Assembly (NCBI GenBank): GCA_964519615.1
Contig: CAZFIM010000004.1
Span: 10,086 to 74,085 of the forward strand
Source of the DNA: an uncultured Dehalococcoidales bacterium
GTDB lineage: Bacteria > Chloroflexota > Dehalococcoidia > GIF9 > UBA5629
Direction of reading: 5' to 3'
Length of the DNA stretch: 64,000 nt
Part shown: piece by piece, positions 1 to 54,741 of the stretch
Numbering within the stretch: position 1 is the first letter of the stretch
Layout: the number at the start of each line of letters is the position of its first letter
The notes under the pieces: generated by a model
What the model saw: the letters and a program-made list of their open reading frames with translations, nothing else
Told to the model about the DNA's origin: nothing
Database searches by the model: none
Program-made: the position numbers and the translations under genes

Positions 1-206
1 TGCAGGAGCAAATCATAGGTGTCATTAATACTGCCGGCCTGCGAGTTCTCTACCGGCACTACACCATATTCGACATTTCCCTGAGAGACTGCCTCGAATA
101 CCTCTGCCCAGCTGGGATAGGGGCGTGTTTCAGGACTGCCGAAAAACGTAATGACAGCATCTTCACTGAAAGCGCCATGTTCACCTTGAAATGCAACCCT
201 GATCAT
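1..206 (-). CDS. pheA: prephenate dehydratase, N-terminal part (runs off the window)
   Basis: Manual translation from ATG at 206: MIRVAFQGEHGAFSEDA...GVVPVENSQAGSINDTYDLLL, matching the PDT motifs FQGxxGAxS and PxENS. AGGAG SD upstream. Confidence 0.9.
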   Translation of the reverse strand, partial: MIRVAFQGEHGAFSEDAVITFFGSPETRPYPSWAEVFEAVSQGNVEYGVVPVENSQAGSINDTYDLLL

Positions 207-222
207 AAAGGGCTCCTGTACC

Positions 223-885
223 TCATCCACCCAGCAGTTCATTACGAAGCGCTTCTTCGCTTTCCACAGTCGTCAGAGCGATAAGACGGTCATTGGCTTT
301 TAAAACCGTGTCCACTGTCGGTACACGCGGCTGCTGGCCGTTACGCATGAGCAGAGTCAGAACTGAATCCCACGGTATATTTAAATCCTTAATAGCTTTC
401 CCGATAGCTTTCGATTTTTCATCCACCTTTATCTCCAGAATTTCAGTTCCCTCCTCCCCCATCGTCAGCAAATGAACCAGAGCATGAGACGGTATCTCTT
501 CCTGAATATGCTTGAGTATTATATTGGTAACAACGATAGTACAGTCAACGCCTAATTTTTTGAATATCGCCTCATTTTTGGGATTGCTCACTCTGGCGAT
601 AGTCCGCGGTACACCAAACCTGTGTTTGGCTACCTGACAGGCTACCATATTATCTTCATCTTCATTGGTAGTAGCAATAAATACATCAGCACGGGAGACG
701 CCCACATCTGCCTGCGTCATTACCTCGCAGCCATCTCCGCGAACGCATACACTGCCGAGCTCTTCTCCAAAACGTTCGCACCTGTTTCTGTCCTTCTCCA
801 GCACGAGTACTTCGTGACCTTCATTAAGCAGTTCCCTGCAAAGATAATAACCGACACTACCGCCGCCGACAATTACAATATACAT
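223..885 (-). CDS. trkA: TrkA-family RCK protein (RCK_N + RCK_C)
   Basis: IVIVGGGSVG Rossmann motif, ADVFIATTNEDEDN, IARV, and a C-terminal RCK_C (GKAIKDL...P.....L..NDRL). Confidence 0.9.
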   Translation of the reverse strand: MYIVIVGGGSVGYYLCRELLNEGHEVLVLEKDRNRCERFGEELGSVCVRGDGCEVMTQADVGVSRADVFIATTNEDEDNMVACQVAKHRFGVPRTIARVSNPKNEAIFKKLGVDCTIVVTNIILKHIQEEIPSHALVHLLTMGEEGTEILEIKVDEKSKAIGKAIKDLNIPWDSVLTLLMRNGQQPRVPTVDTVLKANDRLIALTTVESEEALRNELLGG

Positions 886-907
886 CGTCGAACCTCTTCC
901 ATCATTC

Positions 908-1306
908 TCATGATAACAGCTTATCCTTTAAGATATGCGCAATGATCGTTGTAGGGCTTATTGCCTCCAGCCCGACAGTTTCATACACTTCTTTACGCAG
1001 CGGGTCGTATATTCTGCAAATGACCCTGGGGACATTGAAGATATGTTTGGCAATTTGAGATGCCATTGCATTACGGTTGTCACCCTCCGTCAAAGCCAGA
1101 AAAGCATCGGCTTTCTCTATACCTGCCTTGATGAGCACATCCTGTTCCGTTCCGTCACCTATCAGCGCAGTTCCTGCAAAATCCGACGGCAATCTTCTGA
1201 AACTGTATTCGTTGATATCCAGAACAGTAACATCATGACCCTCTTCGGCCATTAGCTCCGCCAGAAGCGCACCGACCCTTCCACACCCCATAACAATAAT
1301 CTTCAT
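908..1306 (-). CDS. trkA: TrkA-family protein, RCK_N domain only
   Basis: MKIIVMGCGRVG, GDGT, ADAFLALTEGDNRN; 132 aa with no RCK_C. Confidence 0.88.
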   Translation of the reverse strand: MKIIVMGCGRVGALLAELMAEEGHDVTVLDINEYSFRRLPSDFAGTALIGDGTEQDVLIKAGIEKADAFLALTEGDNRNAMASQIAKHIFNVPRVICRIYDPLRKEVYETVGLEAISPTTIIAHILKDKLLS

Positions 1307-1315
1307 AGCATATCC

Positions 1316-1741
1316 TCACTGCGTAGATTCTCTATACACCAGAACTGGACAGGGAGCCTCTTCCAGTACCCGCGGAACAGCCGAACCGAGGTCAAAAATG
1401 CCAAAGCGTATTTTATGGCTCATCCCCATAAGTATCAAATCCACGTTTCGTTCTCGCGCCTCATCGACAATAGCCGAACCAGCATCACGTGCCTGAATCA
1501 AATCTGTCTCCACTTCATAATCGTTATCAGCGGCCACATCTTCGGCACGCGTAAGTATCGCTTCAGCTTTATCCACTTCAGATTCGACAACAGCATCAAG
1601 CGGTAAACTGCGTTTCACCTCGATGATATAAACCACAAAAATTTCCGCTTTTGATTTTTTAGCGAGCGTACAGGCCAGGCTTATTACCGCCTCATCGGCC
1701 ACATTTCCGCTTATAGCAACAAGGATTCTTGCAAGTTTCAT
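1316..1741 (-). CDS. universal stress protein (USP)
   Basis: RILVAISG, DLILMG, GSAVPRVLEEAPCPVLV; 141 aa. Confidence 0.9.
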   Translation of the reverse strand: MKLARILVAISGNVADEAVISLACTLAKKSKAEIFVVYIIEVKRSLPLDAVVESEVDKAEAILTRAEDVAADNDYEVETDLIQARDAGSAIVDEARERNVDLILMGMSHKIRFGIFDLGSAVPRVLEEAPCPVLVYRESTQ

Positions 1742-1744
1742 AGA

Positions 1745-3355
1745 CTACAACCCATCATTATCATCAGAATCTTTCTTTCTGTCAACTCTGATTTTAACCT
1801 GCCCGGTCAGGAAACGGTCCCTTACCGTCACCATGCGGTCGGAGCGGGCTACCCCGAGTATCGGCAGCTTCTTCTTCCATCGGAAGATTACATAGACTAT
1901 CAGCCCAACGGCCATCCAGGCCAGCCCCACCCAACGGCTGTACGGTTGTGTGATCAGGACAATAATCCAGATAACGGCTGTACCCAGCAAGCCGAGAATA
2001 GCGGTGAGCGGCAATTCATAACCATGGAATCTGATATTCAAGCCCAGTTTAAAAGGACGCAGCCAATCCGGATTCATCATGCGCAAACGGAGAACGGAAG
2101 CGTGTGCAAAGACAAATGACAACAGTGAACCGAAAGCATAGAGCGTTCCCAGTTTTTGAAAATCATCAGGCGCAAAAAAACTGGGGATTATTATCACTAT
2201 TGCCAGAGATGCAAACAGTATAATAGATATATAAGGGGTCTTGGTTCGTTTATGCACGCGGCTGAGTGCCGGCGGTATCAACTGAAATCTGCCCAATGAA
2301 AAAGCCAGCCTTGAAATCCCCATCAACCCGGCATTGGTGGCGATAAACAATATACTGGCAGCAAGAACAGCCACCAGCACCGGAAATACCGACTGTACAC
2401 CCTTGAATAACCATGTTAATATGATGATCAATTCCTCACCCGAGGCAAGCGATTGTGCCATCTCCGCCGGTGAAGTAGCTGCAGCGATCTTGGCTGCAAT
2501 GCCTGCAATAGGGTCTGTCGCCCACTCCATGGCCAGTTCCTGAGGCGTCATCACTGAAAAACCTACAATCGATACGCCGCCGAATAATATTAATACCGTG
2601 ATTATCATAAGCGTCAATGCCTTGGGCACACGTACAGCGGGACGCTTTGTTTCCTCAGCCATCTGGGACATAGTCTCCACACCCGTATAAGCAATGGCAG
2701 CTAAAGCTATGCCGAGAAAAAGGTTTTCCCAGCTCGGCCAGAATGCCGTCACATTGAAAGCCAGATTATTAAAATTGAAAACGATAAAAAGTCCCAGTAC
2801 TATGATAAGTATCTGTACCAGCAGGTCCATAACCGCCGCCATCACATTAACAACCGTTGTCTCTTTAACTCCGATGACATTGATTACCATTAGAAAGAAG
2901 ATAATACCCATCGCAACTGCCGGACCCACAACTGCCGATTCCTTCAAAGGAGCCCAAAAATAGCCCAGATAAGGCGGAATAACAAAAGCGGAGATAGCTA
3001 TAGTAACGATATAGCTGAGCATCAGAGCCCACCCGCTCATAAAGCCTCCGATATCATTGAAGGCATGGCGCGCGAAGCTGGCGGAACCCCCGGCCTCCGG
3101 CAGCATGGCGGTGCCCTCGGCATAGGTCAGTGCTGTGAAAATGAAAAAGATTCCGGCTATGGCAAGAACTATCGGCGTTGCCCCCATCGCTACCAGTGTG
3201 ACAATGCCGAGCGCATAATAAATAGATGAGCCCACATTGCCGTATCCAACGGCATAAAGGCCGGGTATACCCAATGCTCTTTTAAGAGGATGGGCTTTAA
3301 CCCTTGGACGACGTATAAATTTATCGCCCGGTTTGGGCTGTTTGCTTGTGGTCAC
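1745..3355 (-). CDS. APC-superfamily permease
   Basis: About 12 hydrophobic segments; GNVGSSIYY (TM1), LPEAGGSASF, AYTGVETMSQMAEE (TM6). Confidence 0.88.
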   Translation of the reverse strand: MTTSKQPKPGDKFIRRPRVKAHPLKRALGIPGLYAVGYGNVGSSIYYALGIVTLVAMGATPIVLAIAGIFFIFTALTYAEGTAMLPEAGGSASFARHAFNDIGGFMSGWALMLSYIVTIAISAFVIPPYLGYFWAPLKESAVVGPAVAMGIIFFLMVINVIGVKETTVVNVMAAVMDLLVQILIIVLGLFIVFNFNNLAFNVTAFWPSWENLFLGIALAAIAYTGVETMSQMAEETKRPAVRVPKALTLMIITVLILFGGVSIVGFSVMTPQELAMEWATDPIAGIAAKIAAATSPAEMAQSLASGEELIIILTWLFKGVQSVFPVLVAVLAASILFIATNAGLMGISRLAFSLGRFQLIPPALSRVHKRTKTPYISIILFASLAIVIIIPSFFAPDDFQKLGTLYAFGSLLSFVFAHASVLRLRMMNPDWLRPFKLGLNIRFHGYELPLTAILGLLGTAVIWIIVLITQPYSRWVGLAWMAVGLIVYVIFRWKKKLPILGVARSDRMVTVRDRFLTGQVKIRVDRKKDSDDNDGL

Positions 3356-3389
3356 AATAATAATGCTTTAATGAAAATAACTGTGGCGA

Positions 3390-3418
3390 ATTTTAACCAT
3401 AGTACCCGTTCTTGTCAA
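3390..3418 (-). promoter_or_regulatory. sigma70 promoter of the APC-USP-trkA-trkA-pheA operon
   Basis: Minus strand TTGACA (3413-3418), 17 bp, TAAAAT (3390-3395). Confidence 0.75.
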
Positions 3419-3450
3419 CGTGCTGTCTACTTCATCTGTTACTATTATAA

Positions 3451-3480
3451 TTGAACTGTCAATCAGTCTTACGTTATAAT
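3451..3480 (+). promoter_or_regulatory. promoter of tRNA-His
   Basis: TTGAAC (3451-3456), 18 bp, TATAAT (3475-3480), 19 nt before the tRNA. Confidence 0.6.
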
Positions 3481-3498
3481 GTTTCTTTATGGATTTAT

Positions 3499-3575
3499 GG
3501 TGAGCGTGGCCTAGCGGTTAAGGCGCCAGGTTGTGGCCCTGGAGATCGAGGGTTCAAATCCCTCCGTTCACCCCA
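3499..3575 (+). tRNA. tRNA-His(GTG)
   Basis: Acceptor stem GTGAGCG/CGTTCAC with G-1 and C73, anticodon arm CCAGG-TTGTGGC-CCTGG, T-arm GGTTCAAATCC, encoded CCA. Confidence 0.97.
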
Positions 3576-3689
3576 CTTCCCTTAATGTCACCCTCGCTAT
3601 TACTTATTCCCATAGACGTCGAATGGAAAGCGGCTCGTCTCGCACGCCTGCCTTGCCTTCTGGTAAAATACAACTTGACTCAGGAGCAT

Positions 3690-3765
3690 GCGCCTGTAGC
3701 TCAGCGGATAGAGCACCGGTCTTCGGAACCGGGTGTCGTGGGTTCGAATCCCACCAGGCGTACCA
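3690..3765 (+). tRNA. tRNA-Arg(TCG)
   Basis: GCGCCTG/CAGGCGT acceptor stem, anticodon arm CCGGT-CTTCGGA-ACCGG, A20 in the D-loop, GGTTCGAATCC, encoded CCA. TGGTAAAAT extended -10 at 3661-3669. Confidence 0.97.
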
Positions 3766-3890
3766 GTTTATCAACTGCCAAACCTCTTGAACACCACCAC
3801 CCCATATTATATACTCACGACGCTTTGTATTGAAACTGGCAGACACAGAATACTCATCGTTGCCAACTGCAAAATGCCGGAATTCAACAA

Positions 3891-3924
3891 CAAAAACCTG
3901 ACCGCAACAGGATTACGGTCAGGT
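3891..3924 (-). terminator. intrinsic terminator of the XDH-family operon
   Basis: Stem ACCTGACCG/CGGTCAGGT (3896-3904 / 3916-3924) followed by a U-run on the minus strand. Confidence 0.7.
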
Positions 3925-3993
3925 ATAGTGAGGAAGCAGCGCTTTATTAAGCGCAAATCCCTTCATTCGCAATAAATTCTTATTCTTCGTACC

Positions 3994-6276
3994 CTATTTT
4001 TTCAATGCGGCCAGTATCCTTTCAGGCGTTATCGGCATATCCTGAATACAGATACCTGTAGCATCATAAATAGCGTTGGCTATTGCGGGAGTGACGGCAA
4101 CCATCGCCCCCTGTGAAACGCCTTTAGCGCCGTACGGTCCTGAAGGAACCGGTTTATCCTCATAGAGAACTATCTCAATCTCCGGCATATCGAGCATAGA
4201 CGGCAATTTATATGTATTGAAATTATTGCTTTCCAGAAAACCCGTTTTGTTATTGATAATATAGTCTTCGGTAAGCGCATACCCTACGCTCTGTGCTATA
4301 GCACCTTGCAATTGTCCTTCCACCGTTGCAGGATTTATGACTTTCCCTGAGTCACTGACATAGAGGATTTTCAAAAGTGACACCTGTCCCGTTTCAATGT
4401 CAACCTCTACTTCGGCAAAGACAGCCGCAATCGGCGGAGGATTCTGTACCGGTGAGAAAGAGCCTTTGCCGGAAATATTTACATGCTCTCCTTCAAAATT
4501 AAAAATTGAAGTCCGTGCAACCTCAGCAATGGACATGCTCTTTGCGGGATCTGTTTTTACACTGACCTGCCCGTTTGCGATATCCAGTTCCTCAGGCTTC
4601 ACACCCAGCTTGATTGCCGCCTGCTGCAAAAGCTGTTCTCTCGCAGCTAATGCCGCCCTCATGACAGCATTGCCTGTCTGATAACACCCGCCGCTGGCAT
4701 GCTGTCCGTGATCGAACATGGTAGTATCAGTATCTCCTGTTACCACATGGACACTTTCATACGGCACACACAGCGTCTCCGCTGCGATCTGTGCCATCGC
4801 CCCCATGAGGTTCTGGCCTATATCAGGTCCCTCTACCATCAGGTTGACGGACCCATCCTCATTGAATTTAATAAAAGCATTTTTGTTCTGAAGATTAAAG
4901 GGTTGTGCGCCGCTCACATCCATCATGATTCCCATGCCTATCCCATACCTTTTCGGTCCTTTATCCTTCTTTTGCGTTCTCTTGGCATCCCATCCAATTT
5001 TTTCTTTGCCCAGCCGGATGCATTCATCAAATGTGCATGTTTCCATGGGAAGCCCGGTTGAACTCGGATCGCCGGCATGCTTGATATTTTTCAGCCGCAA
5101 CTGCGTTGGGTCCATTCCCAGTTTCTGCGCCGCCTCATCGATAATTTGTTCCAGCACATAGGAATTCTCATGATTGCCGTAACCCCGCACACCACCCGTA
5201 GGAGGTACATTGGTATAGACAACAGTGGCTTCCGCGGCAACATTGGGGCAGCGGTAGAGACCGAGGAAGGCCCCCATGCCTACATTTGTAGTTGACGTAT
5301 TATGGGTAAAATAGGCACCACCGTCAACGACTATTTTCTCGGAGATAGCTGTTATCGTCCCATCTTTTTTAAATCCTACTTTGCCGGTGATAAAGTACCT
5401 CTGTCTGGGCTCGGTACCAAACATATCTTCTTCTCTGCTGAAGGCTATTTTGACGGGCCTGCCTGTTTTCATTGCCAGCACCACGCATACCGGCTCTATG
5501 CCGAAGCTGCCGTATTTCCCAAAAGCACCCCCTATATGAGGAGAAATCCAGCGGACCATCCCTTCCGGCATGTCATAAAGCCCGGCTATCATTTTTCTGT
5601 GCAGAAAAGGATGCTGACTGGGAGACCAGACCGTAAGCCTGCCTCCGGCATCAAACGATGCCACACAGGCGCAAGGCTCCATCTGGCAAATATGGTTACG
5701 GGCATTTTTAAACGTCTTCTCCACTATAAGGTCAGCATCCGCAAAACCCTTCTCCACATCTCCCCAGGCTACCGGAAAACCGTACTTTATGGAAATATTA
5801 TTTTCAGCATAGTCATGTATTTTCTCCGCACCCGGCTTCACAGCTTCCAGTGCATCAAAAACAGCCGGCAGCACCTTGTACTCAACTTCGATAAGCCCTA
5901 AAGCTTCTTCGGCAGTGGCAGCATCTACTGCTGCTACCGCCGCTATTTTATCTCCGATATAGCGGGCTTTCTCGCTTAATACATACATATCCTTGAATTC
6001 TATCTCAGGATGCCGCAATATTTGCCCCAGTTTATTGGGATTAAAAAGTTTATGAGGAACATCTTCCCAGGTAATAACCGCTTCTACTCCGGGCAATTTC
6101 TCTGCCTTCGATTTATCGATCTTTACAATGTTAGCGTGAGCGTGCGGACTGGTCAGGACCTTGCCTGTAAGCATCCCGGGCAATTTGATATCTGCTGTAT
6201 AGCGGGCGGCCCCCGAGACTTTGTCATATACCGCCCAGCGGGAAACTCTCTTTCCTACAACCGATAGATCTTGCAT
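3994..6276 (-). CDS. xanthine dehydrogenase-family molybdopterin-binding large subunit (CoxL/XdhB-like)
   Basis: KVSGAARYTADI, SPHAHANI, MEP, GGAFG, RGYG, GPDIGQ, DSGKVINP..VEGQLQG, GAKGVSQ, TPERIL. Confidence 0.93.
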   Translation of the reverse strand: MQDLSVVGKRVSRWAVYDKVSGAARYTADIKLPGMLTGKVLTSPHAHANIVKIDKSKAEKLPGVEAVITWEDVPHKLFNPNKLGQILRHPEIEFKDMYVLSEKARYIGDKIAAVAAVDAATAEEALGLIEVEYKVLPAVFDALEAVKPGAEKIHDYAENNISIKYGFPVAWGDVEKGFADADLIVEKTFKNARNHICQMEPCACVASFDAGGRLTVWSPSQHPFLHRKMIAGLYDMPEGMVRWISPHIGGAFGKYGSFGIEPVCVVLAMKTGRPVKIAFSREEDMFGTEPRQRYFITGKVGFKKDGTITAISEKIVVDGGAYFTHNTSTTNVGMGAFLGLYRCPNVAAEATVVYTNVPPTGGVRGYGNHENSYVLEQIIDEAAQKLGMDPTQLRLKNIKHAGDPSSTGLPMETCTFDECIRLGKEKIGWDAKRTQKKDKGPKRYGIGMGIMMDVSGAQPFNLQNKNAFIKFNEDGSVNLMVEGPDIGQNLMGAMAQIAAETLCVPYESVHVVTGDTDTTMFDHGQHASGGCYQTGNAVMRAALAAREQLLQQAAIKLGVKPEELDIANGQVSVKTDPAKSMSIAEVARTSIFNFEGEHVNISGKGSFSPVQNPPPIAAVFAEVEVDIETGQVSLLKILYVSDSGKVINPATVEGQLQGAIAQSVGYALTEDYIINNKTGFLESNNFNTYKLPSMLDMPEIEIVLYEDKPVPSGPYGAKGVSQGAMVAVTPAIANAIYDATGICIQDMPITPERILAALKK

Positions 6277-6279
6277 CGC

Positions 6280-6777
6280 TTATTTGCCTCCTTTTATCAT
6301 CATCTCAGCCGCAGACATAACCGCATCAATGATCTTCACATATCCGGTACAGCGGCACAGGTTGCCCCCGAGAGCTTCCTTTACTTCCTGTCTGCTGGGA
6401 TTTGGATTTTCATCCAGAAAAGCTTTAGTCGTCAGTATCATTCCGGGCGTACAGAATCCGCACTGTACCGCACCGTGCTCAACGAAAGCTTTCTGGATAG
6501 GATGCAGTTCAGTACCCTTTGACAAGCCTTCTATGGTGAGAATGTCTTTATCACGTACAGCCATAGCGAGGGTTGAACAGGAAAGCACAGGCTTACCACC
6601 AACTAGAACAGTACATGCACCGCATTCACCGGTACCGCAGGCCAGCTTGGTGCCGGTCAGTTCCAACTGATCCCTTAATAACTCCAGAAGGGTGATATTG
6701 GGAGATATAAGGACCTCATGTTGTCGGCCGTTTATTTTGAAATGAGCAATTTCTTTTTTCACTGCATAATCCTCCAT
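6280..6777 (-). CDS. XDH-family 2x[2Fe-2S] small subunit (CoxS-like)
   Basis: GTKLACGTGECGACTV, QCGFCTPG, GNLCRCTGY. Confidence 0.95.
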   Translation of the reverse strand: MEDYAVKKEIAHFKINGRQHEVLISPNITLLELLRDQLELTGTKLACGTGECGACTVLVGGKPVLSCSTLAMAVRDKDILTIEGLSKGTELHPIQKAFVEHGAVQCGFCTPGMILTTKAFLDENPNPSRQEVKEALGGNLCRCTGYVKIIDAVMSAAEMMIKGGK

Positions 6778-6779
6778 AA

Positions 6780-7652
6780 TTAAGCGGTCTTTATTCCCAA
6801 AGCCTGATGTAACGCCCTCATCACCAGAATACGCGTTACTTCTTTCCTGTATTCAGCAGTGGATCTCACGTCGGTGATGGCACGCGTCTGACCGGCAGCC
6901 GCTTCGGCTGCTTTCTCTATAAGCTGAGCATTTGCTTTCTGGTTATCCAGTATAGATTCTGCGCTTCTAGCGCGAAACACTGTGGGTGCCGCTGCACCGA
7001 TTGCTATCCTGGTATTGCTGCAGACACCGTCATTATTCATCACAGATACAGCTACGCTTACCTTGGCAATATCGGCATGCGTTCTAACAAGATTAAGAAA
7101 GGCGGTCCCGGTGTTGGCTTTTGCGGCAGGAAGAGAAACAGCCGTGACCATTTCACCGCGCTGAAGCGAGGTACACTGATAATCAACGAAGAATTTTTCA
7201 ATAAGTTCGTTACGCTGGCTGCCTGTGCCGGCAATAGTTAACTCTGCGTCGAGAGCCATCAGTGCGGTAGCTACATCAGAAGCAGGTGTAGCCACACAAA
7301 TGTTTCCGATAGCCGTGCCCATACACTTGGCTTGATACGAAGTAATTTGATGGATTGCTTTATAGAATGCGGGGTAGTTCTCGCGGATGTGTCCGGACAG
7401 CTCTAATGCGTGAAGTGTGGTCATAGCAGTAAATCTGACTCCGCCGGACCGCTCAACTGTAATTTCATCCAATCCGGGTATTTTCTGGATATTTACCAGA
7501 TAGTCCGCCTTTATAGCTCCCCGCCGCATCCTGGGCAGTAAGTCCACACCACCGGCCAGTATCTGCACTTTATCTCCATACTTAAACAACAATTGAGTTG
7601 CTTCCTGCAGTGTTGCAGGTTCAAAATAATCAAACGGCTTCAATACTTGCAT
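6780..7652 (-). CDS. XDH-family FAD-binding medium subunit (CoxM-like)
   Basis: FDYFEPATL, LAGGVDL, GTAIGNIC...PASD, DVRSTAEYR. No Cys-rich insert of the HcrB type. Confidence 0.93.
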   Translation of the reverse strand: MQVLKPFDYFEPATLQEATQLLFKYGDKVQILAGGVDLLPRMRRGAIKADYLVNIQKIPGLDEITVERSGGVRFTAMTTLHALELSGHIRENYPAFYKAIHQITSYQAKCMGTAIGNICVATPASDVATALMALDAELTIAGTGSQRNELIEKFFVDYQCTSLQRGEMVTAVSLPAAKANTGTAFLNLVRTHADIAKVSVAVSVMNNDGVCSNTRIAIGAAAPTVFRARSAESILDNQKANAQLIEKAAEAAAGQTRAITDVRSTAEYRKEVTRILVMRALHQALGIKTA

Positions 7653-7701
7653 CTACATGCTCTCCTTCCGATAAAATAATCTATACTATTTCAAGCGGCC
7701 T

Positions 7702-7739
7702 AAAAAAAGACTCCGAAAAATACACGATAAGAGTCTTTT
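7702..7739 (-). terminator. probable terminator after livF
   Basis: AAAAGACTC/GAGTCTTTT inverted repeat followed by a U7 run on the minus strand. Confidence 0.55.
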
Positions 7740-8473
7740 CATGATCCGGAAAGGCCGCATTTATCCGATACACCGATATAGACATCAAGTACTTCATCCT
7801 GCTTGGCCAGCTCCTCAGGAGTGGATTCATAAACAACCTTACCTTTATTCACCACATAAACATAATCGGCAACTTCCAGAGCAAGATTAATATTTTGCTC
7901 CACCAGAACTATTGACAAACCCTCCCTATTTAGCTTCTTAATAGTAGTACCAAGTTCCTGTACGATAATTGGAGCAAGACCTTCAGATGGTTCATCCATA
8001 AGAAGTATTTCAGGATTTGTCATTAACGCTCGGCTGATACAAAGCATCTGCTGCTCTCCCCCGCTTAGCAAATTACCTTTGTGTCGTTCTCTTTCTTTTA
8101 GACGCGGGTAAAGTGAATATATTCTATCCAGATTCCATGCACCCTGCTGTTTACTGCCTCGTTCAGCAATAATAATATTTTCTTTAACACTCAGTGATTG
8201 GAATATTCTGCGCCCCTGGGGAACCAACGCAACACCCATAGTGGCAATTCGATTAGGCTCAAGGCCTACCACATCTTCTCCATCTATAAGAATTTTCCCC
8301 TTAGCCGGAGGCGTAAAACCAATGATGGAGTGAATTATTGTTGTTTTGCCCATACCATTGCGGCCCAATATAGCAACTACAGAACCTCTCTTAACCTTCA
8401 GGTCTACGCCCCAGAGGATCTGGCTATCCCCGTAAAACGTCTGGACATTAATCATCTCCAAGATATCAGTCAT
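7739..8473 (-). CDS. livF: branched-chain amino acid-type ABC ATPase
   Basis: GRNGMGKT Walker A, VPQGRRIF, LSGGEQQML, LLMDEPSEGLAP. Confidence 0.92.
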   Translation of the reverse strand: MTDILEMINVQTFYGDSQILWGVDLKVKRGSVVAILGRNGMGKTTIIHSIIGFTPPAKGKILIDGEDVVGLEPNRIATMGVALVPQGRRIFQSLSVKENIIIAERGSKQQGAWNLDRIYSLYPRLKERERHKGNLLSGGEQQMLCISRALMTNPEILLMDEPSEGLAPIIVQELGTTIKKLNREGLSIVLVEQNINLALEVADYVYVVNKGKVVYESTPEELAKQDEVLDVYIGVSDKCGLSGS

Positions 8474-9215
8474 TTTTTAAAGCCCCTAAATATATCTCCC
8501 GTACCTTTTCATTACACTGTATTTGTTCAGGTTTGCCATCAGCAATAATTTGACCGAAATAGAGAACTACTACCCGTCGTGCCAGAGTAAAGACCACATC
8601 CATATCATGGGCGGAAAAAATCACTGTTGTTTCAGCTGCCAATTCCTTTACCATAGAAATGAACGTTTCAATTTCAGCGACCGATAGTCCCACAGTAGGT
8701 TCATCCATCAAAAGCAGTTTAGGCTTTGATGCAAGGGCAAGTATGATTTCTAATCTGCGCTGCTCACCGTAAGAAATGCTCGCGGCTATCTCATCTTTTT
8801 TATCCCACAGGTCAACTTGCTTAAGCAGACGTTCAGCTTCAGAGTTAATGTGATCATAACGAGTGGCACGACGAAACATCTGATATTTCGAGGGACTCAC
8901 TCCCTGCAAACCAAGGGCGATATTATCCAATACGGTGAGATTGAAAAAGAAGCGTGTTATCTGGAAAGACCTCCCCATACCGATATGTATACGCTGATGA
9001 GTTGGCATTCTGGTGATATTCTCCCCAAAAAAGTACAGATTTCCTGCCGTTAACGGAATCTCTCCGCTGATCATATTAAAAAGCGTGGTTTTACCTGCTC
9101 CGTTGGGGCCGATAATTGCCACATACTCTCTTTCTTTGACAGTCAGAGAAAGATCTTTTAGTACCTGAAGCCCGCCGAAGTTTTTATATAATCTGTCTAT
9201 CTTAAGTACGTCCAT
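8466..9215 (-). CDS. livG: branched-chain amino acid-type ABC ATPase (start reassigned to ATG 9215)
   Basis: KNFGGL, GPNGAGKTT, ISYGEQRRLEI, DEPTVG, VREIYLG. The ORF-track extension to 9305 overlaps livM and is not family-like. Confidence 0.9.
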   Translation of the reverse strand: MDVLKIDRLYKNFGGLQVLKDLSLTVKEREYVAIIGPNGAGKTTLFNMISGEIPLTAGNLYFFGENITRMPTHQRIHIGMGRSFQITRFFFNLTVLDNIALGLQGVSPSKYQMFRRATRYDHINSEAERLLKQVDLWDKKDEIAASISYGEQRRLEIILALASKPKLLLMDEPTVGLSVAEIETFISMVKELAAETTVIFSAHDMDVVFTLARRVVVLYFGQIIADGKPEQIQCNEKVREIYLGALKND

Positions 9216-10203
9216 AGTAACGATCTTGAACCTTTTCCCATATTCGAACAAGGCGTATACCCAATCCACCGCGCAGGAGCAGGACAGCCAGTATAAATAC
9301 CGCACCCAGTACTAGAGGCCAGCGATCAGGTATATAGAGACTGGCAATATGCTCCAATAATACTATTACGGCGGCACCAAGTGCTGGACCCCAGAAAACC
9401 TGATCACTACCGAGTATGACCATCAGCAATACCATTGCAGATGTGAGAAGACTGAGAAATCCCGGCCCGACAACTCCACTGTGAAATGTGTATATTGACC
9501 CGGCAACACCTGCAAAAAGGCCACCGAGAATGAAAGCTATATATTTATAGAGCCAGGTATTATAGCCCAGATGCTTCATGCGGCGTTCATCACCATAAAC
9601 TCCCTTGAGCGCACGTCCAAAAGGTGATTTCCCTATTAACGAGAGTAGAACAAAGCATATGATAAACACTACAAATACCAGGTAATAAAAACTCGTTGGC
9701 GTTAATCTCAACCAGGATATACCCATATCCGGATACATAATCCCCGCTATGCCGTTAAAGCCTCCGGTAACATCTTTCCATTTTATACCTACGCTGTACA
9801 TCAATTGACCGATAGCCAGAGTCACCAGAAGAAAATACGTCCCGGATACACGCAGTGCAATAAAACCGAAAACCGCAGCGGCGATAGTAGCAATTGCGAT
9901 ACTGGCAATAATCAACAGCCAGAAGCTTTCTATTTCAAAACGTGTCGTCAGTATTGCTGCAGTATATGCTCCTATACCAAAAAAGGCGGCATGCCCCAGA
10001 GAGAAAAGCCCCGTATAACCGAATAGCAGATTCAAACTCAAGGCAAAGACACCGTATATAAGTATCTTGATTACCATGCTCCTGATATAGGGCGTAACAA
10101 AAGTAGGTAGAATCAGAATAATTACGGCAATGAGAACATACCAACCGTATTGTAAAAGCCATTTAGGCATTTTAGACTTTGTTTCCATGGTAACGCTTTT
10201 CAC
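9202..10203 (-). CDS. livM: branched-chain amino acid-type ABC permease
   Basis: LNLLFGYTGLFSLGHAAFFGIGAY, GGFNG, SPFGRAL, WGPALGA. Confidence 0.92.
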   Translation of the reverse strand: MKSVTMETKSKMPKWLLQYGWYVLIAVIILILPTFVTPYIRSMVIKILIYGVFALSLNLLFGYTGLFSLGHAAFFGIGAYTAAILTTRFEIESFWLLIIASIAIATIAAAVFGFIALRVSGTYFLLVTLAIGQLMYSVGIKWKDVTGGFNGIAGIMYPDMGISWLRLTPTSFYYLVFVVFIICFVLLSLIGKSPFGRALKGVYGDERRMKHLGYNTWLYKYIAFILGGLFAGVAGSIYTFHSGVVGPGFLSLLTSAMVLLMVILGSDQVFWGPALGAAVIVLLEHIASLYIPDRWPLVLGAVFILAVLLLRGGLGIRLVRIWEKVQDRYYGRT

Positions 10204-11054
10204 TGCGTTCTCCCTAAAAGTCCGGATGGCCTGACGATTAGAATGATAATCATTGTGAGATAAACCGTATATAATGCAATATTAGGGAAATACGCTCTCC
10301 CAAATGCGTCAACGACGCCTATCAGTATAGATCCTATCAACGCCCCCTGAATACTTCCCACACCTCCAACAACAATTATTATCATGGCAAAAAGCAGTAT
10401 ATCCAGGCTAATTCCCGGTTGAATGCCAATGACGGGTGTACCCAAATAACCTGCAAGCCCACCCAGAAACGCTCCCATAAAGAAAACGAAGCTGGCATAC
10501 ATGTTATAATTGATCCCCATACCTATTGTCATCTGCTTATCATCCATCCCCGCGCGGATCGTTGCCCCCAGGCGTGTTTTCTCTTGCAAATACCAAAGGC
10601 CGAAAAATATAAGCAATCCGATAAGAACAATAGCAAGACGGTATTGAGGATAACTGGTATCACCTATTTGTACAGCGTTGCTTAGAAGTACAGGCGGTTT
10701 TCCGATCATAGCCATAGGTCCCCAGACCCAAAGAAAAGTATTGGAAAGGATAAAGACTACACCTAATGTCAGAAGTACCTGTTCGTTTATCTGTTTATAG
10801 AGACGCCCAAGAAACAGCCGCTCTAACACGAATCCAACGACACCTACAGCTAATCCTGCAACAAGCGCCGCCAGAGCAAAATTAAAACCATATCCAGCAA
10901 GGCTCAGACCAATATAGGCACCCAGAACATAAAGAGCACCATGCGCCAGATTGAGAATCCCCATAACACCGAAAATCAATGATAAACCACTGGCAATAAT
11001 GAACAATATCATGCCATAAGAAACGCCGTTTAGTAGATTGATTAATGTTTCCAT
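10200..11054 (-). CDS. livH: branched-chain amino acid-type ABC permease
   Basis: GLSLIFGVMGILNLAHG, KTRLGATIRA, GGVGSIQGALIG, RPSGLLG. Confidence 0.92.
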   Translation of the reverse strand: METLINLLNGVSYGMILFIIASGLSLIFGVMGILNLAHGALYVLGAYIGLSLAGYGFNFALAALVAGLAVGVVGFVLERLFLGRLYKQINEQVLLTLGVVFILSNTFLWVWGPMAMIGKPPVLLSNAVQIGDTSYPQYRLAIVLIGLLIFFGLWYLQEKTRLGATIRAGMDDKQMTIGMGINYNMYASFVFFMGAFLGGLAGYLGTPVIGIQPGISLDILLFAMIIIVVGGVGSIQGALIGSILIGVVDAFGRAYFPNIALYTVYLTMIIILIVRPSGLLGRTQ

Positions 11055-11333
11055 ACAAAGGCACCTGTTCAGCTATTGTAAACTACATACGATCACACGC
11101 CAGTATAATAATTAATCCAGCATATCCCGTTATTACTATAGCAATTTAAAGGAAAAATTTGGGATAGATTCAATTTTATGGTGTATAGCTGTTTGTTAAA
11201 TCCTGACTGTTATCTTATATTTCCACTATTTCCACTCCGAAATACAACTGATGGGTTGGTACGCAAAATTATATCGTTATCAATTTCCATAGCGATAAAT
11301 GAACGTATTAACTGAATACTATGCCGCGTTAAC

Positions 11334-11362
11334 ACTATAATCAACTAAGAATACCGTGTCAA
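11334..11362 (-). promoter_or_regulatory. sigma70 promoter of livHMGF
   Basis: Minus strand TTGACA (11357-11362), 17 bp, TATAGT (11334-11339). Confidence 0.7.
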
Positions 11363-11529
11363 TGATTTCTACCGGTATACAGCACATATTTTTTTCTCAA
11401 TTTTGTTGAATAAATTGCCGATTATAAAAGATCTGAATTACATCCTGGCAGGCAACGCCAAACGTACGACTAATATAACACAGTGACGAGAAAAATTCAA
11501 TGTACTACATCAAAAATAAATGGCATTGA

Positions 11530-11558
11530 TTGACATTTAACTTCTAAAATGATAAAAT
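11530..11558 (+). promoter_or_regulatory. sigma70 promoter of the SBP gene
   Basis: TTGACA (11530-11535), 17 bp, TAAAAT (11553-11558), enclosed by a GATTGACA/TGTCAATC inverted repeat. Confidence 0.7.
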
Positions 11559-11902
11559 TGTCAATCCAATTATAAGTATTGTGATAGTTTTTATTAGAAT
11601 ACCTTATCTTAACATACATGGCAGAATATTTATATATATTTACCCCTACTCATCGGCATTATTTGCACCGCTTATATAAAAAACTGTAATGGATGGAAAG
11701 ACTATATTAATCTTATAGTCAACGTTAGTAGTTAAATGTACTGTTCTATCAACCGGTTGGGATAATATCCGGAGTGATAAGGGAGCCAGAGAGTTTACCT
11801 GGAAACACAGCTGTATGAAAAATGACCTCGAGCCAAAATAAGGAGGTGAAATAACAGGATTTCTTAAATCAAAAATAAGGAACATTTTTATTAAAGGAGG
11901 TA

Positions 11903-13099
11903 ATGAAAGTGAAAAGGTCTTCGATTAAAATATTATTATTGACCATATGTCTGGTACTGGTACTGATGGTGGCATTACCGGCTTGTCAAACCTCTTCACA
12001 GGAAGGAAAACCGCTAAAGATAGGTCTTATCCTTGAGTATTCAGGCGCTGCTTCTCCGTGGACCGCTCCGTACACTGAGGAAGCAGTAAGACTTAAGCTG
12101 GATGAGATTGGCTGGGAAGTTGCAGGCAGAAAAATAGAATTAATAACAGAAGACGGGGCAAGCAATGTAGAAGTCGCTATTGAAAAAGCAAAGAAATTGG
12201 TAGAGAATGACCGGGTAGAAGTAATACTCGGTGTACTATTCGGCCCCTCTGTCATAGCTGTCTCCAAATATGCGAGCCAAGTAGGTGTTTGTTTTGGCAC
12301 GTACATCGGACAGTCAATGGATGTTGTAGGCTCTGATCCTAACTACTCGATACTTGCAACGGGCACACTAGCCGGCGGCAACTATGAATTGGGCAAATAT
12401 GCCTATAATGAATTGGGTTACAGAACGGCAACTACTGTCTATCAGGATTTTGTATCTGGGGAGGGATTCATCGGCGGATTCGAAGTGGGATTTAGACAAG
12501 CAGGAGGGGAAATAATCCAGCGGCAGGCAGTCCCACTAGGGACAGTAGATTTCGCTCCATACCTGACAAACCTTGAAGATGCAGACTGTCTGGCCTACTG
12601 GTTAGCTGGCACCATGAACATTTTCCTCGGGCAGTACTACGATTTCAATATAGACATCCCAGTAATCGTACCATCTTCCTGGTGCCTTGACATGGCGCCT
12701 TTAGTAGAGATGGGCGATACTCCGCTGGGCATTCTCGGCTGCGGTCATGCCAATGAGTGGGTGACTGATATACCTCAGAATGCCGATTTCGTGAAGGGTA
12801 TGTATGATAGAGGCTATGAACCCATACAATATTCATATGCTATATACATAGCAACCGCTACATTCTTAGAAGCAGTAGAAAAAACAGGTGGTGATACCAG
12901 CCCTGAAAAGCTGCACGATGCCTGGATCAACGTCAAAATGAATACGCCTGCCGGTCCAGTACGATTTGATGAATATGGATGTGCTATCGGGAACCTGTAC
13001 CTGTACCAATATTCAAAAGATGATAATGGGGAATATTATTGGAAAGTAATAAACACTTTTGAAGATGTACCGATGAAGTGTCCCGAGATTGATTACTAA
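11903..13099 (+). CDS. ABC substrate-binding lipoprotein, Leu/Ile/Val-binding-protein-like fold
   Basis: Signal peptide with LPAC lipobox, LKIGLILEYSG, GRKIELITED, A+++AKKLVEND+V++ILG. AAGGAGG SD. Confidence 0.88.
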   Translation: MKVKRSSIKILLLTICLVLVLMVALPACQTSSQEGKPLKIGLILEYSGAASPWTAPYTEEAVRLKLDEIGWEVAGRKIELITEDGASNVEVAIEKAKKLVENDRVEVILGVLFGPSVIAVSKYASQVGVCFGTYIGQSMDVVGSDPNYSILATGTLAGGNYELGKYAYNELGYRTATTVYQDFVSGEGFIGGFEVGFRQAGGEIIQRQAVPLGTVDFAPYLTNLEDADCLAYWLAGTMNIFLGQYYDFNIDIPVIVPSSWCLDMAPLVEMGDTPLGILGCGHANEWVTDIPQNADFVKGMYDRGYEPIQYSYAIYIATATFLEAVEKTGGDTSPEKLHDAWINVKMNTPAGPVRFDEYGCAIGNLYLYQYSKDDNGEYYWKVINTFEDVPMKCPEIDY

Positions 13100-14079: not shown

Positions 14080-15093
14080 TTATTTGTTTTTCTGCCGGCG
14101 TGACTTAAAATCCGGATTGATTATCCATTCCGGCCAGGTATTATGCACGGTACTTGCCACCGCTTCATATATCCTTTGCTTATATTTAACGGATGATTCT
14201 TCCGAATAATAGGCCGAATGGGCGGTTATGATAACATTATCGAACTTGAGCAGAGGATGATCGGCACCTATTCCGGCAGGCTCTTCTGCCACCACATCAA
14301 GTGCGGCACCGGCAATCAAGCCTTCCGCAAGCGCTGTACATAGGGCACCCTGATCCACAAAAGCTCCGCGGGCAACATTGATAAGATATGCCGTATTTTT
14401 CATTGAGCGGAACTCTCTCATCCCGATCAGCTTCCTTGATTCCGGATTATAGCTGGCCTGAATGGAGATAAAATCACACAGAGGAAGCATATCCTCAAGC
14501 GTTGCCCGTGTTACACCCATGTCCTTAAACACCTCGTCTGCTACCCCGGGATCACAGGCAATAACCTTAAGACCGTAACCCAACGCTTTAGCAGCCACCA
14601 GCCGGCCTATCCTGCCGAAGCCGATCAGCCCCAACGTTCTTCCGCGAATGGGAAATGTAGGCGGAAGTATCACATTACGGAATTCACGCTTCTCAAAGGA
14701 ATTCCATTTATTTTCTCTCACTGCCCTGTCGAGCCGGGTGATCTTGCGTGCGCTGGCAAAGAGCAGGGCCATTGCGTGATCGGAAACCTCTTCCATGCAG
14801 TAGTCACCGGGATAGGAAATACATATACCTTTTTCCGTAGCAGCCTTAATATCTATAGTATCGAAGCCTGTGCCGGCATTAAAGATTAAACGGCATTTAT
14901 CCAGCTTCTCAATCACCCTGCGGCTGAAAGGCTGCATCAGAGTAATAATGGCATCCGCATCGCGCGTGGCTTCAATGAGCTCATCCTCCGTAGTGCATGA
15001 TACAGTCTCAAATTCAACGCCGAGGTCGTTTTTATATGACTCGATTTCCCTCCTGCTCAGAACCCTGGCAGTCATTACAACTTTAGCACTCAT
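14080..15093 (-). CDS. D-2-hydroxyacid dehydrogenase family (CtBP-like)
   Basis: GTGFDTIDI, GLIGFGRIG, INVARG, LDVVAEEP, TAHSAYYS. Confidence 0.9.
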   Translation of the reverse strand: MSAKVVMTARVLSRREIESYKNDLGVEFETVSCTTEDELIEATRDADAIITLMQPFSRRVIEKLDKCRLIFNAGTGFDTIDIKAATEKGICISYPGDYCMEEVSDHAMALLFASARKITRLDRAVRENKWNSFEKREFRNVILPPTFPIRGRTLGLIGFGRIGRLVAAKALGYGLKVIACDPGVADEVFKDMGVTRATLEDMLPLCDFISIQASYNPESRKLIGMREFRSMKNTAYLINVARGAFVDQGALCTALAEGLIAGAALDVVAEEPAGIGADHPLLKFDNVIITAHSAYYSEESSVKYKQRIYEAVASTVHNTWPEWIINPDFKSRRQKNK

Positions 15094-15268
15094 TTGATTC
15101 TACCCCTGTATAAATATCAATTACCATCTCCGGACAGAGAATCCGGTTTACAGCCCCTGAAAATCTATCCGAAGATGGTAAGAACGCTTTATAAATGGCG
15201 CATATGCAAACCACCGGCCACTCCATCCCTGTTGTATGCGCTTTTACCGTTTATCTGGCAGACCCGCA

Positions 15269-16027
15269 TCAACCCACAGCGGTGACGCCGCCGTCGACGT
15301 AGAGGATCTGTCCGGTAATAAAATCAGCCTCATCAGATGCCAGAAAAACACAGGCGCCTTCAACATCAGAAGGAACACCAAGGCGTTTCATGGGGCTCTT
15401 ATCGGCTGCCAGCTTGATGCGCTCCGGAGCTACCTCTCTCTGGATTGTCTCTGTAAGCACCAGTGCCGGGCCGATAGCATTGACGTTAACGCCAAAAGGC
15501 GCCCATTCCGCTGCCATCATGCGGGTGATCATATCGACCGCACCTTTGGTAGCGCCGTAGCCGGTATTGCCGCCTGCGGTTCCGCGCGCGCCGCGAATAG
15601 AGGAAAGATTGATGATTTTACCCTTTTTCTTCTCAACCATCATCTTACCAAAGACTTTACAGGGCAGCATTACACCCTTTACGCTCACAGCGAACATGGC
15701 ATCCCAATTCTTGACATCGATGTCGGTTGCGGCCATTTTAATATTCAATCCCTGTGAATTGACCAGAATATCAACCGTGCCGTATTTTTTCACTACCGCA
15801 TCAGCCAGTTTTTTAACGCTGTCTTCATCAGCAACATCAACCTGCATAGCCGAAACCTCGTTTTTGGTCTCAGACTGAATTTTACTGGCTACCTGCTGCA
15901 ATTTCTCCAGATTGCGGCTGGCGATCACGACCTTTGCACCCTGCTTTGACAGCGCCAGTGCGCAGTGTTCGCCCAAACCACCGGCACCACCGATGACAAC
16001 CGCTATTTTTTTGTCCAGACTAAACAT
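15269..16027 (-). CDS. short-chain dehydrogenase/reductase, probably NADP(H)-dependent
   Basis: VIGGAGGLG, ASR after beta2, DILVNSQG, S..YGATK catalytic motif, ITGQILYVDGG. Confidence 0.9.
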   Translation of the reverse strand: MFSLDKKIAVVIGGAGGLGEHCALALSKQGAKVVIASRNLEKLQQVASKIQSETKNEVSAMQVDVADEDSVKKLADAVVKKYGTVDILVNSQGLNIKMAATDIDVKNWDAMFAVSVKGVMLPCKVFGKMMVEKKKGKIINLSSIRGARGTAGGNTGYGATKGAVDMITRMMAAEWAPFGVNVNAIGPALVLTETIQREVAPERIKLAADKSPMKRLGVPSDVEGACVFLASDEADFITGQILYVDGGVTAVG

Positions 16028-16156
16028 TGTACCCTCCTTAAATATTTATTACTTCACAAATTACTTAACGAGTTAATAAAAAAATCATCTAACCGTAAGA
16101 CTCCATCCGAACTTTAATCCGTTCTGGGCAATCAGCATAACATATTGTCTGAAATG

Positions 16157-17593
16157 TTATTCGTTTATACCTGCCAGCTTTTTAGCCAGTTTTTTCTTGG
16201 ACTCCAGATCCGTATTACGCAAAATAGTCATCTTATGTGTCTCGGGCGACCCTGCGCCGTGAATATTGGAGACGATATCGCGGCTTTCAAAGGCCAGCTT
16301 CTCTATCAACCTGAACATACGAATCCTGTCTTCAGTGGACACATTGTCAGCGCCTTTTAGGTATTTCTTAAGCAACGGCCCTATATCCGGATCTGCGAAG
16401 TCTTTTTCCGAAGGCACATCGGCGACCATGCCGCCCGCGATCTCTATCATATTACGTATGACTTCATGCAGTTCCTTGCCCTCATAAAGTTTAGAGGTGT
16501 TAGAGAGAACGGGGTCAACCGTATAAATACCTGATGGCGTTGGAGTAGCTTCTACTGAAGCGGCAACAGAGCAGCCGTAAATCGCCTGTATAGTCTTTAT
16601 CATTTCCACCAGTTTGGCATTGATATGAGAAACATTTTTCAAGCCGTTGTAATCCGCAGCAACAGCCGCTGCACCGATCAAAACATCGCCCACGCCGCAT
16701 TTGCAGCCGCCGTGCGAATGCCGGTGATAGTTGCCGAAATTACGAACCATCGGCCCTGCGTATTCATATTCACCGCAGAGAAAGACATATTCCCAGGGGA
16801 CAAAGACATCCTGGAAAAGAAGCATGGGGGCGAACTTGCTGTACTCCACATTACCAAGGTCGCAGTTTTCCATCGCCCTGCTCTCCAGCGTTCCTCTGCC
16901 GTATACATGAATTAGACCTTTGGTATCGGTGGGCACGGCAAAACAGACGGCGTAGTCTTTATCGTCCTCACGCATTTCGCGAGCGGGAACAATAAGCGCC
17001 CAGTGCGCACAGAGAGAGCCTGTCTGATGTATCTTGGCACCCCGCACGAAGATACCATCCTTGTTCTTATCAACAACGCGCAGATACATGTCCGGATCTT
17101 TCTGCTGAGACGGCCGGAGAGACCTGTCGCCTTTCACATCAGTCACACCACTGCAGACCACATAATCGTTCCTCTGTACCATTTTAAGGAAGTCAGTCAG
17201 CCTTTTGAAGTATTCCGTATCGTATTTCTTATCGCAATTATATATTTCAATACCTGCGGAATTGATGGCATCCATGCCGGTACAGCGCATAAAGCAGCCG
17301 CCTATACGCTGTGAGAGATATTTGAGCATTCTTACCTTTGCCAGCAAATCCTCCTGGCTCTGGTAGAATTTTACGAATCTGCTCACCTCTTCATTAATCA
17401 GGTCGGATTTTGCCACTAAAAAAGCCCGCCCCTCCTCCGTATTCGCCAGCGCATAAGTCTGCGCAACTGAAGCAACCATATGCTTGATCAGGGGATGTTC
17501 TACCGGATTCTCTACTTTCTTGCCCAAAATATATGCTTGAGGATGAACTTTCTTGAGCGATTCATAATATTGTTCCCTAGTCATTACAGCCAT
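16157..17593 (-). CDS. 4-hydroxybutyryl-CoA dehydratase / vinylacetyl-CoA isomerase family (FAD, [4Fe-4S])
   Basis: GGCFMRCTGMD and HRHSHGGCK match the AbfD cluster ligands; TDVKGDRS, RGAKIHQTG, HGAGSP. Confidence 0.85.
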   Translation of the reverse strand: MAVMTREQYYESLKKVHPQAYILGKKVENPVEHPLIKHMVASVAQTYALANTEEGRAFLVAKSDLINEEVSRFVKFYQSQEDLLAKVRMLKYLSQRIGGCFMRCTGMDAINSAGIEIYNCDKKYDTEYFKRLTDFLKMVQRNDYVVCSGVTDVKGDRSLRPSQQKDPDMYLRVVDKNKDGIFVRGAKIHQTGSLCAHWALIVPAREMREDDKDYAVCFAVPTDTKGLIHVYGRGTLESRAMENCDLGNVEYSKFAPMLLFQDVFVPWEYVFLCGEYEYAGPMVRNFGNYHRHSHGGCKCGVGDVLIGAAAVAADYNGLKNVSHINAKLVEMIKTIQAIYGCSVAASVEATPTPSGIYTVDPVLSNTSKLYEGKELHEVIRNMIEIAGGMVADVPSEKDFADPDIGPLLKKYLKGADNVSTEDRIRMFRLIEKLAFESRDIVSNIHGAGSPETHKMTILRNTDLESKKKLAKKLAGINE

Positions 17594-17723
17594 TAATAAG
17601 TCCTCCTATCGTCAAAAAAGGTACATGAAGTATACACCTATTTACACACAAACCGTTAGTTGAAGTCTTCTATCAGACTATACCGCTGCAAGTATAATAA
17701 ACCGATTTTACGGCATATTTTAT

Positions 17724-45441: not shown

Positions 45442-45454
45442 CAGGAGCTATAGC

Positions 45455-46024: not shown

Positions 46025-46061
46025 ACCGCTTATTCAATCTTCCGGTACTCTATCGATGAGC

Positions 46062-47174: not shown

Positions 47175-47237
47175 GTATTCTTATATCTGTATGGCATTAT
47201 TGCCGGACCGGAACAGTCCGGCCCCGACCCGTGGCAA

Positions 47238-52413: not shown

Positions 52414-54741
<2,328 letters not shown>

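Follow-up and report, generated by a model that had tools for sequence, protein, structure and literature searches.

A gene in a 64-kb stretch of contig CAZFIM010000004.1 from an uncultured Dehalococcoidales bacterium (the whole stretch is referred to as the window) encodes a protein that belongs structurally to the xanthine oxidase family and in which the catalytic glutamate of that family is replaced by glutamine. The protein is a large subunit of the xanthine dehydrogenase (XDH) family, the subunit that binds molybdenum (Mo) and molybdopterin cytosine dinucleotide (MCD), and the substituted position is residue 722. In a previously uncharacterized clade, alignments show a neutral residue (Gln, His, or Met) in place of this general-base glutamate in every sampled member, and the clade is the largest and best-supported Glu-less case met in this analysis. 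The features of the locus are collected in Table 1.

The Mo subunit contains the Ald_Xan_dh_C, MoCoBD_1, and MoCoBD_2 domains of Pfam and has 42 relatives in the PDB. The AlphaFold (AF2) model has a mean predicted local distance difference test (pLDDT) score of 95.4 and matches structures of the family with template modeling (TM) scores of 0.84-0.92. The best fold match is the alpha subunit of 4-hydroxybenzoyl-CoA reductase (4-HBCR; 1rm6_A), with a TM score of 0.92 and 32% identity. Both the domain architecture and the fold are those of the xanthine oxidase/dehydrogenase family. The cofactor-site motifs are invariant or nearly so, namely Q221, G249-G250-x-F252-G253, R364, Y366, G487-Q488, A527-S528, and G713-P-x-G-A-K718. 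By what we take to be the motif register, the residues at Q221, F252, R364, Y366, and the A-S motif are the equivalents of bovine Q767, F798, R912, F914, and A1079.

The C-terminal part of the Mo subunit reads ...VPSGPYGAKGVSQGAMVAVTPAIANAIYDATG..., and the translation of the minus strand ends ...PSGPYGAKGVSQGAMVAVTPAIANAIYDATG.... When the subunit was aligned to solved structures using HMMER, Gln722 was placed on the Glu of 4-HBCR alpha (GAKEASEG), of CoxL from M. smegmatis (GAKGIGES), and of 6-hydroxypseudooxynicotine dehydrogenase 7dqx_A (GAKGLGEI). This column is presumably that of bovine E1261, R. capsulatus E730, and D. gigas E869. Glutamine at the catalytic position had been read from the letters alone in the original prediction, and both the structure-based alignments and a 261-sequence alignment of the family bear it out. 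The span given for it there (4096-4135) does contain the codon, although it lies about 5 nt off the motif itself. For R. capsulatus XDH, quinoline oxidoreductase, and PaoABC, activity is reported to be lost or to fall drastically when the glutamate is replaced by mutagenesis. The residue is regarded as an essential base that is needed to activate the Mo-OH group in the xanthine oxidase family (PMC13653126), and the same essential role is also stated in PMC11760930.

The best 120 relatives of the Mo subunit were taken from a protein search over 5.8 billion proteins. Residue 722 is Gln in approximately the closest 50 of these, His in the next 40, and Met in a few, and Glu appears in the column only below ~60% identity. 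The 150 best 50%-cluster representatives were added to construct the 261-sequence MAFFT alignment, from which a FastTree tree was calculated. None of the 85 sampled members of the clade has Glu at column 722 (44 Gln, 35 His, and 6 Met), and among the 176 sequences from outside the clade all but 10 (166) have it. The change is therefore no single-genome variant, and a clade of homologs sharing the loss of Glu, for which the original prediction had suggested a search, does exist. Gln and His interchange several times within the clade, which is nested inside Glu-bearing groups. The stem that unites the clade with its six nearest Glu-bearing sisters has a Shimodaira-Hasegawa-like (SH-like) support of 1.0 and a length of 0.19; the SH-like support for the Glu-less clade itself is 0.78. 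The members originate from anaerobes of digesters, sludge, and sediments. A pattern scan of genome contigs with the clade alignment gave, among the matches listed, sequences of 53% identity or less, none of which belongs to the clade, and a scan of metagenome contigs with the Mo subunit provided 5 loci. A literature search turned up no description of Glu-less enzymes in the xanthine oxidase family, or of such a gene context.

An 88%-identical relative (locus L011) likewise has Gln at residue 722. The ratio of nonsynonymous to synonymous substitution rates (dN/dS) over the whole gene is 0.059 for the window and L011 and 0.051 for L003 and L012, and by these values the clade is under strong purifying selection. 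The sequence of the Mo subunit was found in metagenomes of anaerobic digesters, bioreactors, wastewater, and sludge. A DNA contig of run X2 is identical over 3900-4194; this run is part of a study on anaerobic digesters from which the assembly itself may stem. No differing letter is present across the same interval in run X4, which comes from a separate study. Parts of the Mo and FeS genes are matched, without mismatches or with a few, by contigs from metatranscriptomes, and the enzyme is transcribed, with the reservation that the RNA runs may contain DNA carry-over. An error of sequencing or assembly, or a gene in decay, was weighed as an explanation for the glutamine, and it is refuted by the open frame of 760 codons, the identical contigs in other runs, the 84 other members without Glu, the dN/dS of ~0.05, and the confident structural model. 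The original prediction had set aside decay, and on these data and the transcripts it was right to do so.

Loss of the glutamate is not confined to the 85-member clade. Ten of the 176 outgroup representatives (~6%) are also Glu-less, as are large subunits in 5 of the 80 named genomes, none of them in the clade. Gln is present in L020 (Chloroflexia), L029 (Thalassospiraceae), L068 (Blastocatellia), and L087 (Rhodospirillales), and Met is present in L063 (Desulfobacula). These other lineages are separate and mostly small, and they differ from the clade in their active-site signatures. The sequences of L068 and L087 read PFGAKEAGQ, a KEAGQ signature of the Hcr type. The outgroup proteins P0153, P0234, P0257, and P0194 have also lost the Mo-site glutamine, with Met or Ile at the Q221 column, which suggests a differently altered active site.

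The partner subunits of the Mo subunit are encoded next to it. The small subunit has the Fer2 and Fer2_2 domains, and its relatives are 160 amino acids (aa) long, so that the real start may be located a few codons downstream of the one in Table 1. The medium subunit, which has the FAD_binding_5 and CO_deh_flav_C domains and binds flavin adenine dinucleotide (FAD), aligns over its full length with CoxM-type chains of 287-296 aa. Only residues 1-122 of this subunit align with the 324-aa HcrB of 4-HBCR, and it contains just four scattered cysteines; therefore, the 4Fe-4S insert of HcrB is absent, as had been proposed originally. The gene order is identical in all loci of the clade. With its domains, cofactor motifs, and both cysteine motifs of the small subunit in place, the system is otherwise intact, again as proposed, and the gene is predicted to supply the Mo/MCD subunit to a functional XDH-family enzyme that is built from three subunits and contains FAD, two [2Fe-2S] clusters, and Mo.

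Table 1. Features of the Mo enzyme locus and its surroundings (positions in the window)
Feature	Position	Strand	Evidence or remark
Mo/MCD-binding large subunit, XDH family (P0001), 760 aa	3994..6276	-	PF01315, PF02738, PF20256
Motif GPYGAKGVSQGAM, residues 713-725	4102..4140	-	base-by-base reading and translation
Gln722 codon CAG at the catalytic-Glu position of the family	4111..4113	-	reverse complement of ctg
Loop GGAFGKYG, residues 249-256, with Lys254	5509..5532	-	alignment
His369-Glu370, just after the Arg364-Gly-Tyr366 loop	5167..5172	-	alignment
[2Fe-2S] small subunit (P0002)	6280..6777	-	two four-Cys motifs in translation
FAD-binding medium subunit (P0003), CoxM-type, 290 aa	6780..7652	-	profile and alignment
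Liv-type (HAAT) importer, directly upstream of the FAD gene	7739..11054	-	two permeases and two ATPases
Importer permeases	10200..11054; 9202..10203	-	
Importer ATPases	8466..9305; 7739..8473	-	
Periplasmic binding protein (Peripla_BP_6), divergently transcribed	11903..13099	+	profile
Sigma-70-like promoter match, 11/12	11334..11362	-	upstream of the first permease gene; consensus match only
Terminator-like hairpin, 13 pairs and T run	3896..3924	-	70 nt past the Mo-subunit stop
tRNA-His(GTG)	3500..3575	+	
tRNA-Arg(TCG)	3690..3765	+	

The active site of the clade differs from that of the family at several further positions. The loop GGAFGKYG stands where the family majority has GGGFGGK. The deviation of this loop was pointed out in the original prediction and is real, although GGAFG alone is unremarkable (7dqx_A has GGSFG) and the informative part is Lys254. 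This lysine is found in 83 of the 85 clade members and is located one position ahead of the usual Lys/Arg of the family, whereas the outgroup has Gly, Ser, or Ala there, followed by Lys or Arg. By the motif register that we assume, Lys254 is two residues ahead of the site at which xanthine dehydrogenases have their purine-binding Glu. That Glu, which follows GGGFGGK, presumably corresponds to Gly256 in the Mo subunit. Glu370 is likewise found in 83 of the 85 members, where the outgroup mostly has Gln. His247, His222 (Ser in the His722 subclade), Asn489, Gly362, and Cys202 are also specific to the clade, and residue 529 is Gly, Ala, or Ser (Gly in the Mo subunit of the window) where the family has the Arg of A-S-R. 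The polar residues among these (K254, H247, H222, E370, and N489) are in or beside the Mo-site motifs. The six nearest Glu-bearing sisters already have Lys254, Gly529, His222, His247, and Asn489, and the glutamate was therefore lost after the Mo site had been remodeled.

Covariation with residue 722 was analyzed within the clade. Residue 369 tracks it best: Gln722 is accompanied by His, His722 by Ser, and Met722 by Pro at that position, and the pair His369/Gln722 characterizes the 34-member subclade of the window. The Gln- and His-type sequences differ most strongly at residues 369, 529, 526, and 222, and other positions elsewhere score high too. A histidine swap between the two sites (His369/Gln722 and Ser369/His722) is the top covariation signal and was kept as no more than a lead, given seven Gln722 sequences without His369. 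The loss of an Arg529/Glu722 charge pair was also considered and rejected, since the nearest Glu-bearing sisters already lack Arg529. In the outgroup, both residues are present in 139 sequences, Glu alone in 21, Arg alone in 8, and neither in 2, and the losses are thus independent.

The Mo subunit was compared with the characterized systems of the family. The best solved relative by sequence is 4-HBCR (HcrCAB) of Thauera aromatica (PDB 1RM6/1SB3; TIGR03193-5), with an E-value of 2e-110. This enzyme shares the three subunits with MCD-Mo, two [2Fe-2S] clusters, and FAD, as well as the origin from an anaerobe and the link to aromatic acids. HcrA, however, retains Glu (KEASEG) where the Mo subunit has Gln722, and HcrB contains the 4Fe-4S insert that the FAD subunit of the window lacks. 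The operon of the window further differs by an ATP-binding cassette (ABC) importer, the lack of a CoA ligase, and the clade-specific Lys254 and His residues. All three 4-HBCR profiles score under their cut-offs: 558.8 versus 994.55 for alpha (TIGR03194), 107.3 versus 404.55 for beta, and 187.5 versus 257.8 for gamma. The highest-scoring named profiles for the Mo subunit are those of XdhA from XdhABC, which has separate Mo, FAD, and FeS subunits of like size, and these also fall under their cut-offs (639.3 versus 780 for NF043082 and 624.6 versus 916 for PRK09970). XdhABC has the catalytic Glu that the Mo subunit is without. The score for CoxL of Cu,Mo-CO dehydrogenase (TIGR02416) is 342.4 against a cut-off of 991.15. 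The loop GGVRGYG of the Mo subunit, with Gly365 after the Arg, does not have the Cu-binding Cys of the corresponding CoxL loop, which we take to read AYRCSFR. The curated cut-off for PucD is not reached either. The urolithin C dehydroxylase UcdCFO of Enterocloster was compared by description (PMC11760930; PMC12658268). It is an MCD-dependent, NADH-driven reductive dehydroxylase of the XDH family from a strict anaerobe, acts on a free polyphenol-derived aromatic substrate, and has an FAD subunit without the 4Fe-4S loop. In contrast to the Mo subunit, UcdO keeps its Glu (E741, PMC11760930), and it comes from another host phylum and another genomic context.

The enzyme and the Liv-type importer are co-transcribed as one seven-gene unit that ends at the hairpin of Table 1. 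An amino-acid permease at 1745..3355 was considered as a further member of this unit and rejected, since the terminator and two tRNA genes of the opposite strand intervene. No riboswitch was found within the first 30 kb of the window. The importer genes are arranged alike in the 88%-identical locus and in L006, and 9 of the 12 distinct loci of the clade have a Liv-type importer or a binding protein within 10 kb of the enzyme. In five loci, including Gln and His types, the binding proteins are orthologues with 60-86% identity. These orthologues and the binding protein of the window alike have 4zpj, 4ey3/4eyg/4eyk, 4evq/4evr, 4evs, and 4f06 as their closest solved structures. Of these, 4ey3, 4evq, 4evs, and 4f06 are benzoate-derivative binding proteins of Rhodopseudomonas, reportedly described by Michalska and co-workers in 2012.

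Reductive dehydroxylation or deoxygenation is ranked first among the reactions that could be catalyzed by the Mo enzyme, as a tentative choice. The binding proteins resemble aromatic-acid binders, and the substrate is therefore probably an imported aromatic or heteroaromatic carboxylate. Lys254 probably points into the substrate pocket and could hold the carboxylate of the substrate. Catalysis at Mo would proceed without a carboxylate base. Electrons would be passed from NAD(P)H to FAD, through the two [2Fe-2S] clusters, and on to Mo, where an aryl hydroxyl or other oxygen function would be removed. A proton-consuming reduction at Mo seems most likely because the clade gained residues that can donate protons at neutral pH (Lys and His) and gave up a base, a change that fits such a reduction better than a nucleophilic hydroxylation assisted by a base. 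Should the substrate be a benzenoid acid, as the similarity of the binding proteins suggests, hydroxylation by Mo-OH would be chemically unlikely, and the dehydroxylations of Hcr and Ucd would be the precedent.

Several observations weigh against a reductive reaction. Both characterized dehydroxylases of the family, 4-HBCR and UcdO, keep the glutamate, and its loss therefore cannot serve as a sign of reduction. In the Met variants residue 722 offers no group for proton transfer, and the six nearest sisters share the Lys/His remodeling yet carry Glu. The binding protein of the window is itself just 30-36% identical to the conserved orthologue group, and no partner enzyme is conserved across all loci. 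The non-canonical chemistry put forward in the original prediction is supported, and the reductive dehydroxylation named there as an example stays conjectural.

The reading ranked second, and a close second, is that of an ordinary oxidative hydroxylase acting on an N-heteroaromatic or otherwise activated carboxylate. The base would have moved to His369 in the Gln type or be His722 in the His type, with Lys254 or Glu370 aiding, so that the enzyme would be unusual in its base and not in its reaction. The pairing of Gln722 with His369 and of His722 with Ser369 suggests one imidazole supplied from either position, and Glu370 is nearly invariant in the clade. The seven exceptional Gln722 sequences, however, have Ser, Thr, or Gly at residue 369 and the Met722 sequences have Pro369, so that the clade as a whole shares no single substitute base; moreover, His369 and Gln722 occur together largely in one subclade plus one extra case, and their pairing is confounded by phylogeny. 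A hydroxylase would also be in keeping with the chemistry of nearly all characterized members of the family, with the XdhA types as the top named NCBIfam models (639 and 625 bits, under cut-off), and with the CoxM-type FAD subunit that lacks a low-potential 4Fe-4S insert. Isochorismatase/RutB-like amidohydrolases, which are encoded near the enzymes of L007, L008, and L096, would suit ring-opened N-heterocycles.

L005, L006, and L008 each have a second XDH operon, Glu-bearing and Hcr-like, directly beside the Glu-less operon, and the copy in L006 reads PFGAKGMGEAAM. The nearest Glu-bearing sister (P0080) is encoded in L093, where three tandem XDH-family operons and then a UbiD/VdcC-like decarboxylase are located at 89..11970. 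The Glu-less protein might accordingly be pictured as a catalytically silent paralogue, a module for electron transfer, scaffolding, or the holding of substrate that acts jointly with a neighboring Glu-bearing XDH-family enzyme. This is improbable. No second XDH-family large subunit was found among the annotated open reading frames of at least 150 aa in the window or within the fetched flanks of L003, L007, L011, L012, L094, and L095. FAD and FeS subunits are encoded within each of the Glu-less operons, and the Mo-site residues and the clade-specific polar residues are retained at a dN/dS of ~0.05. A 709-711-aa cytoplasmic protein of the Mo-bis(pyranopterin guanine dinucleotide) (Mo-bisPGD) type with an N-terminal Fe4S4 domain is also encoded beside XDH-type operons, at 6466..8595 in L001, 17946..20078 in L005, and 2637..4772 in L012. 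The best match for this protein is formate-dehydrogenase-alpha-like and far under cut-off.

The neighboring genes of the clade loci share a theme of anaerobic aromatic or heteroaromatic acid metabolism, in which no one pathway is legible. A thiamine diphosphate enzyme resembling benzoylformate decarboxylase is encoded in L003, and in L006 and L008 such an enzyme is indicated by Pfam TPP domains only. IclR regulators and proteins with a metallo-beta-lactamase fold recur near the clade enzymes. Pyrogallol-transhydroxylase-like Mo enzymes are found nearby in the window (17724..20234), L001, and L003. The gene in the window belongs to four co-oriented genes at 14080..20234 of the minus strand, which encode this 836-aa Mo-bisPGD enzyme (with an AhtL-like first domain), a protein of the HpaB/4-hydroxybutyryl-CoA-dehydratase family, a short-chain dehydrogenase/reductase, and a D-2-hydroxyacid dehydrogenase. 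A beta (Fer4_11) subunit gene is present in L001 and L003 and was not seen beside the Mo-bisPGD enzyme of the window.

Additional redox genes are located elsewhere in the window, including those for an aldehyde:ferredoxin oxidoreductase (AFOR), a DUF362-ferredoxin, and a reductive dehalogenase-like protein. A 388-aa protein at 26482..27648 of the plus strand scores 167 bits against a cut-off of 160.35 for TIGR02486 (reductive dehalogenase) and has a 4Fe-4S dicluster domain. The region 44122..49759 of the minus strand encodes a 4Fe-4S ferredoxin-like protein, an AFOR of the tungsten type, and a tripartite ATP-independent periplasmic (TRAP) transporter (DctPQM). An AFOR is also encoded near the clade enzyme of L003. 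A 768-aa protein of the catalase-peroxidase type (KatG-like) is encoded at 52435..54741 of the plus strand, in what is apparently a strict anaerobe.

The clade enzymes retain the other features of the family but cannot draw on its carboxylate base, and they must therefore act by a route that has yet to be described. The findings mean that either a different set of residues activates the Mo center or the enzymes of the clade catalyze another reaction. The clade provides a concrete gene set for testing Glu-independent Mo chemistry, and the ligand of the importer binding protein could reveal the substrate. Public records label all of the clade proteins as "xanthine dehydrogenase" or as "CO dehydrogenase", which makes the finding relevant to annotation. 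In anaerobic digesters and sediments, where the enzymes are found, what becomes of aromatic acids is also of practical interest. In a bolder proposal, to which we assign a rather low probability, the clade would be a new catalytic class with a Lys/His proton relay and no carboxylate base, which would carry out reductive dehydroxylation or deoxygenation of free aromatic acids derived from lignin or tannin at the potential of NAD(P)H, without CoA activation or the extra 4Fe-4S cluster of 4-HBCR. If this is true, the new class may act as an electron sink for the anaerobes of digesters and sediments.

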